In this document: positions 19,778 to 21,945 of the stretch, in pieces | Numbering within the stretch: the first letter of the stretch is position 1 | Layout of the letters: every line of letters starts with the position of its first letter | From: Candidatus Bathyarchaeota archaeon | GTDB lineage: Archaea > Thermoproteota > Bathyarchaeia > Bathyarchaeales > Bathycorpusculaceae | Direction of reading: 5' to 3' | DNA: 64,000 nt | Assembly: GCA_963707955.1 (NCBI GenBank) | Contig: OY970176.1 | Span: forward strand, 800,001-864,000 | Notes under the pieces: model-generated | The model's input: the letters and a program-made list of their open reading frames with translations, nothing else | What the model was told of the DNA's origin: nothing | The model's database searches: none | Translations under genes and position numbers: made by a program

Positions 19778-19932
19778 AAACAGACTCTCAATACCCTAAT
19801 GAACTTCTTTCTCATTAAGGCTTAGATTTTGTCGGAGCGTGTAGTCCTGGCGCGCGCTCTGAATGGGAACGAAAACAACGGCGTAACTCATTTATTTCTC
19901 ATCACGCTTTTAACCCTTTTACTATTCGCGCG

Positions 19933-20424
19933 CTAGCTCCTTAACATTGCAGTTTGAGCGCCAGATTTTTCGATAGCCAAGACTAAGGCATACCCTATAA
20001 TGTTCATTGAGATTATTGAACCCAACAGGACTCCAATGAACCCTACCTCCAAAGGAACGCCGAAAAGCAAGGCCAAATAGGAACCAACGATGCCTGAGAC
20101 TATTATGTTCTGCGCAACTGTAGCAGCAAACCGAGAACCAGCGAAGTTTCTGGAGGCAATTCTCCAGCCGACGTACGCAGCAAGGAAGTTTGCTATTGAG
20201 CCTCCAATGATGTCGATGTAGCCTAGCCCGCCATATATATTTGCTACAATGTTCCCTAACGTCACTCCCAAGACTACGGGCATTCCGAACACAATGGATA
20301 GGGGGATCAAAGCATCTGCAACTCTCACCTGAAACAGCAGAAAACTTATGGGAGCAAGGAGAATGACACCGGCGGCATACAAAGCAGCGATGACACATCC
20401 TAATGTTATCTTTCTAGTTTCCAA
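19933..20424 (-). CDS. queT: QueT family transporter (ECF S-component)
   Basis: IAALYA, PISF..FQVRVADAL, GVTLGNIVAN, DIIGGS motifs. Confidence 0.88.
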   Translation of the reverse strand: METRKITLGCVIAALYAAGVILLAPISFLLFQVRVADALIPLSIVFGMPVVLGVTLGNIVANIYGGLGYIDIIGGSIANFLAAYVGWRIASRNFAGSRFAATVAQNIIVSGIVGSYLALLFGVPLEVGFIGVLLGSIISMNIIGYALVLAIEKSGAQTAMLRS

Positions 20425-20492
20425 TCTACCACCTCCCGACCGGGGTTTCTAAAGCGGAACGTTGGGAGGCCCCACCACCCGCTAAATAGGGC
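20425..20492 (-). promoter_or_regulatory. Structured 5' leader of queT (candidate riboswitch)
   Basis: Stem AGCGGG/UCCGCU whose loop holds GGGG and CCUCCC, complementary to downstream CCCC and the SD GGGAGG; TATA-like TTTATTTG at about 20508-20515. Confidence 0.55.
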
Positions 20493-20528
20493 ATTTTCAG
20501 TCTTCTACAAATAAAGCTTTGGCAGTCA

Positions 20529-20936
20529 TTACCTTACTTTGCTAAGCGAATCTATGAGTTCATCCATACTTTTGCAGATTTTAATCAGCGCAACTTCCAA
20601 CATAAGATTCACCTCTTCCATTTCTGAAAAGGTGCGGTAATCCGTCTTAAGCCCAACAATAGGCTTGCCCAACGCCGTGGCATAGCCCATTTCATATGCC
20701 ACACCCGCGTCGACTTCCACGCCGTCTAGGACTGCTGCTATCGCGTCGCTTGCCTTCAAGGCCGAGATGTCACCTTCGTAGATCCTCTTCTTCTCTTTGT
20801 GAGTGCCCTGCTGAATGAAGGGAGCTTCTTGGGCAAGCCAGACCTCAAACCCATTTTCTCTCAGTCTCTTGGCTATTTTGGAATTGAACTCTCGCTCAGC
20901 CTCGCTAAACAATGGTGCAGCAAGAAAAACTTTCAT
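20529..20936 (-). CDS. Nucleoside 2-deoxyribosyltransferase family protein
   Basis: VFLAAPLF, D.GVAYEMGYA.ALGKP, DYR, NLM motifs. Confidence 0.9.
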   Translation of the reverse strand: MKVFLAAPLFSEAEREFNSKIAKRLRENGFEVWLAQEAPFIQQGTHKEKKRIYEGDISALKASDAIAAVLDGVEVDAGVAYEMGYATALGKPIVGLKTDYRTFSEMEEVNLMLEVALIKICKSMDELIDSLSKVR

Positions 20937-21065
20937 TTCTACAAGTCACCTCACTCTACATGCGTAGCAATGTACCTACGTACATAAGGATATAATGCAC
21001 GCGCTTTCAGCGATTAGAGAGACTGTTGCCGTTGTTCATTATAGTTGGGGCAAGGCGCGCGCGCT

Positions 21066-21945
21066 CTATTTCGTAAGAATGGGTTTAGCGATGTTTTCCA
21101 CGACTAAACGAGCCATCTTATCAATGTTGCTGAGGGTATCTGCTCCTAAGGATGCAAAGCTCTTCGGAATCATGTCAAGCAACCGCGTAGAATATTCTGT
21201 AGGAAGGTAGGAAAGGCTCTCAGCCAGAAGCCTCTTCATCTTCCCACATAATCTTTTATCAGACAGAAGAGGAGCGGCGCAGCCTGCGGGTTTTAGGCAC
21301 GAAACTAAGCAAAGAATCTCGGCGAGTGGTTTCTCTCTTGACACTTCCCACGAACGTTCGTCGCTTTCAGTAACTGTGAGCAAGTGCTTTGTAAAGGCTA
21401 ATTGGTCTTCAACGTAGCCTCGCCCGTAAAGGAGACGAGAGACCTCATAATCTTTCACCGCTATGGATATCAGGTAAAACAGGTTGGTTGCATATTGTCT
21501 TGAAACGTTGAAACGGCCAATAAAGTCTAAGAGTGGGAGTGGAAGCGGTAGAAGATAGTAGCTTGGGCTGCCGTGCAAAACTGAATGCCCAACCTCGTGT
21601 CGGATTCCTCCCACTTGAACCAGCTTCGGCAGCTTCCATTCTTTCGAGGCAGAGAATGATGCGGGAAATGCCTCTATAAGCGTCATGCATAGCAAAAAAC
21701 AGCTCGTCAAAGGATGACGAACTGACTCCAACTTCCTTAGATTCTTTTGCAGTGAAAGCCTCCATTGATGAGGAATACTTAAAAATGTATAAGTCTACTA
21801 GGGCAACCTCATGGGGCTCAAGTCTACTGTAGCATTCCTTCATGACCTTAATGATGTAATCTGCTTCTTCATCCTTGATGTTGCCAAACTTTGACATAAC
21901 GATTCTCGGGTCTTTCACAGTATTGGTTATATCACGATAAGCCAT
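21066..21945 (-). pseudogene. Hypothetical HExxH protein split by frameshift near 21640
   Basis: ORF 21445..21945 reads to CLERM, and ORF 21066..21731 continues KLPKLVQVGGIRHEVGH; could be an assembly indel. Confidence 0.6.

Follow-up and report, generated by a model that had tools for sequence, protein, structure and literature searches.

In a 64,000-nucleotide stretch of a Candidatus Bathyarchaeota genome (the window), the leader of a queT gene carries a conserved structured RNA motif that we read as a candidate riboswitch of H-type pseudoknot architecture, which would turn translation OFF in response to preQ0 or a closely related 7-deazaguanine. From comparative sequence analysis, we put the probability of this reading at roughly 0.7. 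That the motif is a real, conserved cis-regulatory RNA is close to certain, and that it is a small-molecule riboswitch is quite probable. It is, on present sequence evidence, a strong candidate for a new, essentially archaeal preQ0 riboswitch class that is absent from Rfam 15.

The candidate leader RNA is the exact reverse complement of window positions 20492-20425 (minus strand), within which the motif spans 20485-20429, directly 5' of queT. This candidate regulated gene occupies 19933..20424 on the minus strand and encodes 163 aa, with a UUG start codon at 20424-20422, 7 nt beyond the end of the GGAGG. Its product matches Pfam QueT (PF06177) over profile positions 2-141 of 141, with an E value of 9.1e-27 and 94.5 bits against a cut-off of 33.7. 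The original prediction, made from the letters of the window, had placed a UUG start and queT directly 3' of the RNA; the letters are exact, and the PF06177 match lies above the cut-off. Upstream on the same strand, across an intergenic region of 104 nt, lies a gene (20529-20936, minus) for a nucleoside 2-deoxyribosyltransferase-like protein (PF05014, E 7e-25), which also has a weak TIR_2 match. A conserved linkage with this neighbour was rejected, as among all loci examined it was seen only in the window's own genome, and the idea that its product frees 7-deazapurine bases from nucleosides is only a guess.

Promoter spacing would place the motif at the 5' end of its transcript. In the window, a TATA-like box of the predicted queT promoter, UUUAUUUG (20508..20515, minus strand), starts 31 nt upstream of the P1 region, P1 being the first helix of the motif. 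An AT-rich block covers positions -34 to -27 relative to the P1 region in 150 motif copies, most of which have their best TATA-like 8-mer beginning 29-34 nt ahead of that region. From this conserved spacing and the usual archaeal TATA-to-start distance, we infer that transcription starts a few nucleotides before P1, with the predicted start region of the window at 20486..20492 (minus strand); the motif would therefore sit at the 5' end of the mRNA. A scan for sigma-70 promoters and intrinsic terminators, run with a tool that does not model archaeal promoters, returned nothing relevant.

The motif comprises, in order, the 5' strand of P1, loop L1, a first pseudoknot strand, junction L2, the 3' strand of P1, an A-rich loop L3 and a second pseudoknot strand that contains the Shine-Dalgarno (SD) sequence, an H-type topology that is assigned on the basis of the covarying pairs described below. 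In the window copy, all on the minus strand, the P1 5' strand AGCGGG (20478..20483) pairs with the 3' strand UCCGCU (20453..20458). Loop L1, UGGUGGGG, occupies 20470..20477, of which bases 20475-20471 form the 5' strand of a competing inner hairpin. The 3' two-thirds of the P1 loop carry the anti-SD strand of the pseudoknot, CCUCCCAAC (20461..20469), in which CCUCCC has GGGAGG (20437-20432) as its partner and AC has GU (20440-20439). Its partner, GGUCGGGAGG (20432..20441), runs from the GG after ...AAACCCC through the SD and holds most of the SD GGAGGUG (20436-20430). The junction L2, GU (20459..20460), carries a G that is invariant in the family (columns 32-33 of our alignment A5), and the A-rich tail L3, UUAGAAACCCC (20442..20452), includes an AAA and a last CCC that are likewise invariant.

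The inner hairpin of the window copy (20475-20471 / 20466-20461, minus strand) is part of the minimum free energy (MFE) fold and contains the pairs U74-A63, G73-C64, G72-C65 and G71-C66 (204xx numbering) around a GCCU loop. The isolated pseudoknot duplex has a computed energy of -12.4 kcal/mol. P1 plus the hairpin comes to -14.6 kcal/mol against -11.7 for the pseudoknot helix alone, rough values that omit the pseudoknot penalty; given that unmodelled term, the two states are predicted to be roughly comparable in stability. As a single sequence, the leader folds no better than its dinucleotide shuffles (z +0.93 for 116 nt and +0.63 for 71 nt), and we dropped single-sequence thermodynamics as support, these z-scores being uninformative for a leader so rich in G and C runs.

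Across relatives, by contrast, the motif clearly stands above chance. A QueT protein search of 41 genomes of the same order gave a match in 38, and in 28 of 30 order-level queT loci a near-identical stretch lies just 5' of the start codon, the exceptions being one locus cut at a contig end (L021) and one that has no motif (L011). The consensus of the order-level copies is GGCGGGUGAGUGGG(G)CCUCC(C)ACCCGUUCCGCC-AUAUAAACCCC-GG.GU.(G)GGAGGUG. With a covariance model, R1, built from 28 copies, the window's own 2.35-Mb genome yielded exactly two matches, both 5' of queT paralogues, at 66.3 bits for the window copy and 77.8 bits for the other. The latter, more canonical copy (L031) lies outside the window at contig position 1173634-1173692, and its queT paralogue is 37% identical to the window QueT; over 1 kb this second locus shares 76% identity with a Bathyarchaeota record, in keeping with the Bathyarchaeia-like character of the genome. 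R1 found matches in 28 of 151 genomes sampled evenly across the phylum and in 43 of 101 genomes of the order around a Nitrososphaerota genome.

A search with an exact IUPAC pattern, one genome per prokaryotic species, returned at least 120 stretches. Among the 80 titled matches listed, 73 were archaeal and 7 bacterial; the former included about 57 from Bathyarchaeia or Bathyarchaeota, 11 from Nitrososphaerota or Thaumarchaeota, 2 from Methanomethylicota and 1 each from Methylarchaceae, Promethearchaeota and an unclassified archaeon. Run on the first 100 pattern loci, R1 upheld 93. Eleven loci were left out of the counts as pattern noise: seven that failed R1 (L086, L095, L098, L099, L124, L136 and L151), one that scored 18.2 bits (L156) and three dropped by eye without an R1 run (L170, L176 and L177).

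Some copies have an unusual setting. In a bacterial MAG assigned to Candidatus Deferrimicrobium (L079), a 25.7-bit copy whose pseudoknot is CCUCU/AGAGG plus UAC/GUA lies 5' of a QueT gene; it was kept in the counts because all parts of the motif are present in that position. A Promethearchaeota (Asgard) MAG has a complete copy at 59.9 bits (L065). These two occurrences outside Thermoproteota could reflect transfer or mis-binning. In one genome (G040, L009), two queT genes stand in tandem with the motif only before the first; the second, which is closer to the window QueT, has no motif of its own.

The window copy itself belongs to a recurrent subtype, with an A-U outer pair, L1 GUGGUGG, one C fewer and GGU-Y-GGGAGG. 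Because Nitrososphaerota records share it (L116, L135, L211 and L212 are examples), we do not regard the window copy as decayed. Although the genome is assigned to Bathyarchaeia, the closest leader to window positions 20429-20485 is a Nitrososphaerales copy (L135; 90% over 52 nt), and relatives in the same genus lack a close orthologue of the window queT (best E 1e-9 to 9e-19). These similarities suggest an old paralogue or a transfer of the gene plus its leader.

To assess the pairings, we parsed 175 distinct motif copies, drawn from Bathyarchaeia, Nitrososphaerota and Methanomethylicota plus a small number of further records, and aligned with MAFFT the 125 copies that lie at least 4 edits apart, without fitting the alignment (A5) to any structure. 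P1 has the family form GGCGGG/UCCGCC (6 bp), with no variation in the inner GCGG/CCGC or in the G·U pair. Its outermost pair varies: among 153 copies it is GC in 122, AU in 14, GU in 7, UA in 4 and CG in 3, with only 3 non-standard. The stem proposed for the window, AGCGGG/UCCGCU, is accordingly one member of a covarying series built on an invariant core.

The pseudoknot helix of the family joins the 3' part of the P1 loop (..CCUCC-A-C-CC) to GG-N-G-U-(A)-GGAGG plus 1-3 further downstream bases. Taking P1 and 10 pseudoknot pairs together, 91.0% of cells in A5 are paired, compared with 83.2±0.4% in shuffles (0 of 500 as high) and 42.6-58.3% when the 3' partner is slid by 1-3 columns. Two-sided changes number 218 cells against 76±17 after shuffling and occur in 6 of the 10 pseudoknot pairs, and the covariation score is 0.260 against 0.129. 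Copy by copy, the duplex between a loop and its own downstream strand averages -14.60 kcal/mol, whereas permuted partners average -13.14±0.16 (0 of 2000 as good). The longest such helix has a mean length of 6.51 against 6.05±0.07 for permuted partners (175 copies), and a contiguous helix of at least 5 bp is found in 172 of the 175 distinct copies, in 77 different helix sequences. An SD-sequestering pseudoknot, predicted at first for one leader, is in this way supported across the family, and P1 and the loop:SD pairing both covary among archaeal leaders.

These shuffle statistics overstate significance, because the relatives are not independent, and since the SD is kept for translation in any case, the apparent conservation of the pseudoknot is inflated. 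Whole-helix swaps are also seen in certain lineages, with complementarity kept in UUCCGAC/GUCGGAA, ACAUCUC/GAGAUGU, GUCUCU/AGAGAC, ACCUCG/CGAGGU, CCACC/GGUGG and CCUCCG/CGGAGG; the first four of these preserve the helix in lineages without a GGAGG-type SD and are, to our mind, its strongest evidence. Such SD-less swapped helices argue against SD conservation for translation being the whole story. Where CCUCCC has an additional C, GGGAGG has an additional G to match, and complementarity extends to the bases on either side of the core.

All four complementarities listed in the original prediction (AGCGGG/UCCGCU, CCUCCC(A)AC/GU(C)GGGAGG, CUA/UAG and GGGG/CCCC) are present in the letters of the window; the last two did not extend to the family. 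For the extension of P1 by CUA/UAG, only 94 of 153 copies have a standard pair at the position outside the covarying one, UAG is part of the tail UA(U/G)AAAC, which is conserved and single-stranded, and the window has a U-U mismatch at the next position outward, so we rejected the extension for want of comparative support. The GGGG:CCCC pairing likewise holds as a complementarity of the window. A GGG run occurs in L1 of 88 of 153 copies, and 12 of 153 lack any GG run in the 5' part of the loop; because the CCC of the tail is invariant even in those 12, the pairing is not a shared feature of the family. Mutual information in A5 gave no pairing partner for the L3 tail and no link between the tail and L1. 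One further helix, GGGUG/CACCC, in competition with P1, was dropped by eye, as it clashes with the invariant P1 and fits CCCAAC variants poorly.

A second, alternative helix, absent from the first description of the leader, emerges from the same alignment. In this inner hairpin, GUGG of L1 pairs with CCAC around a GCCU loop; 92.5% of its cells are paired, whereas shuffles reach 88.5±0.4% (0 of 500 as high) and slid partners 47-71%, and two-sided changes occur in 12 cells against 1.6±1.2. Because both use the same CCAC, the hairpin and the pseudoknot are mutually exclusive, and by mutual information the A column of CCAC covaries with its partners in both. The comparative sequences in this way show both alternative helices and the involvement of the SD in one of them. 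Several unpaired positions are invariant as well: the GU after P1, the G(U/A) before the P1 3' strand, and the AAA and CCC of the tail (A5 columns 54-56 and 58-60, invariant in 125 sequences). Within L1, the second internal base (A5 column 10, A or G) covaries with the outer pair of P1 (columns 2 and 39), being A with a G-C outer pair and G with A-U or U-A; this link could represent a base triple or merely shared ancestry.

To characterize the regulon, we scanned the 117 ORFs downstream of loci L002-L139, with the 35 ORFs of the short loci L140-L179 set aside. QueT accounts for 106 of them, alongside 1 QueC, 2 radical-SAM/Fer4_12 proteins (QueE-like) and 1 DUF5591 protein (ArcS-like); 4 ORFs were without a family (L067, L105, L112 and L116; 2 of these are short and probably mis-called), and 3 lie in noise loci. 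Against NCBIfam, the QueC ORF scored above the cut-off of TIGR00364 (195.4 bits versus 150.3), both radical-SAM ORFs had their best matches to five QueE models, all below cut-off, and the sole match of the DUF5591 ORF was to archaeosine synthase subunit alpha, also below cut-off. In one Nitrososphaerota genome, the motif occurs three times, before QueE-like and GTP cyclohydrolase I (FolE) genes, before QueE-like and QueC genes, and before QueT and QueC genes. One Bathyarchaeota genome has the order motif, QueC, QueT, and one Methylarchaceae genome has the motif followed by an ArcS-like gene and then by a weak radical-SAM match.

A second set comprised 29 further loci from the Nitrososphaerota-centred order. 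QueT is the first gene in 19, with QueC next in 5, AAA_18 in 4 and an unrelated housekeeping gene in 4, and with no second ORF taken in 6. The AAA_18 genes, nucleoside/nucleotide kinase-like, stand directly 3' of the motif-led queT (L197, L198, L199 and L201). A QueE-like gene comes first in 6 loci, each time followed by a glutamine-amidotransferase (GATase) ORF that is cut by the end of the locus and that we take to be possibly the GAT-QueC type of archaeosine enzyme. DUF5591 is first in 1 locus, ahead of a radical-SAM ORF. In the other 3, the first ORF has no family and is followed by a 94-95-aa ORF and then by QueC. In these loci (L203, L213 and L220) the first ORF has 173-244 aa, and neither it nor the 94-95-aa ORF matches a Pfam family; the two may be divergent enzymes of the preQ0 pathway.

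On published work (PMC5372724) and general background, we assign the motif-led genes to preQ0 synthesis, salvage and conversion to archaeosine. The motif therefore precedes genes of one pathway that include non-homologous members, namely QueT, QueC, QueE-like, FolE and ArcS-like/DUF5591, and its position before their start codons and its association with preQ0 and archaeosine are evident from the loci collected. The original prediction had named a 7-deazaguanine or another ECF substrate as the sensed molecule. The first of these is upheld by the genes behind the motif; the second has become unlikely, given that the motif leads genes of biosynthesis as well as the transporter gene. Control of biosynthesis by the motif is not universal, as the queD-queC-queE cluster of the window's own genome (contig ~898050-907770) contains no motif copy by R1. 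Two short TGT-family genes border this cluster (loci L180, L184-L186 and L189), whose role could lie in tRNA archaeosine or in a system for the 7-deazaguanine modification of DNA.

Taken together, these features suggest the following switch. The mRNA would start a few nucleotides before the 6-bp P1. At high preQ0, or a very close 7-deazaguanine, the ligand would bind where P1 meets the pseudoknot and lock the latter, burying the SD so that queT would not be translated. At low ligand, the GUGG of L1 would take the CCAC of the anti-SD strand into the GCCU-loop hairpin, leaving the SD free. Since the pseudoknot helix is long (~10 bp), it might form without any ligand. Among preQ0, preQ1, archaeosine base, CDG and guanine, between which sequence alone does not discriminate, preQ0 is the most likely ligand. 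The ligand, the ligand-bound state and the OFF logic are modelled on the regulon and, by analogy, on the bacterial preQ1 switches as described in a review (PMC11625349).

A real two-state switch could also be operated by an effector other than a free 7-deazaguanine base, such as a protein of the pathway or a tRNA with unmodified G15 that binds the leader. Covariation and the regulon indicate a regulated, structured leader, not the identity of its binder, and the invariant single-stranded GU, GU(U) and AAA.CCC could equally form a contact surface for a protein or an RNA. Set against this, no candidate regulator gene recurs beside the motif in the loci examined, and its size, its H-type pseudoknot with an A-rich L3 and its SD burial typify the bacterial small-molecule riboswitches of this pathway (PMC11625349). 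We consider a protein or tRNA effector unlikely.

Less likely still is a leader that responds to no ligand, be it a constitutive damper, an RNA thermometer or a 5' structure that stabilizes the mRNA, inherited together with queT. The pseudoknot duplex is strong alone, at a family mean of -14.6 kcal/mol and -12.4 in the window, and with 106 of 117 downstream ORFs encoding QueT, co-inheritance could explain much of the association. The same motif is found, however, before non-homologous genes of the pathway (QueC, QueE-like, FolE and ArcS-like), three times in one genome, and a plain damper needs neither invariant unpaired nucleotides nor a covarying, mutually exclusive second helix. We retain the preQ0 riboswitch as the preferred reading.

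A full-text search of the literature, subscription journals lying outside its coverage, found no description of the motif. To our knowledge, validated archaeal riboswitches are few and shared with bacteria, and we know of no riboswitch for the archaeosine pathway. If confirmed, the motif would be a native small-molecule switch of archaeal gene regulation with a compact and strongly conserved element of ~60 nt, and it would point to translation control by SD masking in Bathyarchaeia, ammonia-oxidising archaea and similar lineages. It would also provide a marker for genes of preQ0 salvage and synthesis in uncultured archaea, including unknown ORFs that lie behind it, and a ready part for inducible expression in archaea. 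The reading is directly testable with synthetic RNA and commercially obtainable ligands.

With respect to known riboswitches, no Rfam 15 family matched window positions 19800-21100 at E <= 10. Across 20 other loci (48,022 bases), the same threshold gave no match at the motif and three chance-level matches elsewhere, to miRNA, lncRNA and snoRNA families. The covariance models of preQ1-I (RF00522), preQ1-II (RF01054) and preQ1-III (RF02680) had no match in the window or in the 20 loci, and because no Rfam model matches, we place the motif outside the bacterial preQ1 classes. The 2024 review of preQ1 riboswitches recognizes three classes within the family, and the word 'archaea' occurs nowhere in it (PMC11625349).

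Among the known classes, the motif resembles preQ1-I in several respects. Types 1-3 of that class fold as an H-type pseudoknot in which P1 is succeeded by an A-rich L3 and the second helix holds the SD in part or in full; the class regulates queT and genes of que biosynthesis, its ligands include preQ0 besides preQ1, and the dinucleotide immediately ahead of its P1 3' strand is AC or UC, the C of which pairs with the ligand (PMC11625349). Our motif shares the H-type pseudoknot, the A-rich L3 after P1, here with an invariant AAA, and the SD in the second helix. Unlike preQ1-I, it has an invariant G followed by U or A in place of AC/UC (A5 columns 32-33), a further invariant element, CCC, where L3 ends, and an internal hairpin that competes with the pseudoknot, and it is archaeal, with a regulon that includes ArcS-like genes. 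A bacterial preQ1 class-I aptamer has ~34 nt; the motif is about twice as long, and its second helix measures ~10 bp. A distant, enlarged preQ1-I member, its fold and pocket unchanged but its L1, L3 and P2 longer, is the least likely of the alternatives. In its favour are the common topology, the order of P1 and A-rich L3, the place of the SD in the second helix and the pathway; against it, RF00522 matched neither the window nor 20 other loci at E <= 10, the motif extends over ~58-62 nt, and the ligand-pairing C of class I (PMC11625349) is absent, AC/UC being replaced.

Our preferred reading also invites comparison with the other two classes. preQ1-II (the COG4708/queT motif) occurs before queT and buries the SD completely in its pseudoknot helix; it is an HLout pseudoknot of four helices, including an inserted P4, and is confined to Bacillota (PMC11625349). 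The motif resembles it in its position before queT and in the full SD burial that we propose, and differs from it in having two helices plus an alternative hairpin and an archaeal distribution; no fourth helix comparable to P4 was seen in the motif alignments. preQ1-III is a larger HLout pseudoknot with a distant platform, in which an anti-SD:SD helix serves as the expression platform (PMC11625349). An anti-SD:SD helix would play this part in our motif too, whereas the larger size, the HLout fold and the distant platform set class III apart, as does the lack of a model match. It is somewhat more likely than not that the motif represents the first riboswitch class that is almost wholly archaeal and, among the classes for 7-deazaguanines, a fourth with a structure of its own, whose preference would be for preQ0, the end-point base in archaea, and not for preQ1. 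Salvage (queT) and synthesis (folE, queE, queC and arcS-like genes) would both be under its control across Bathyarchaeia, Nitrososphaerota and Methanomethylicota through a three-strand exchange in which CCAC pairs either with L1 (ON) or with the SD-proximal strand (OFF).
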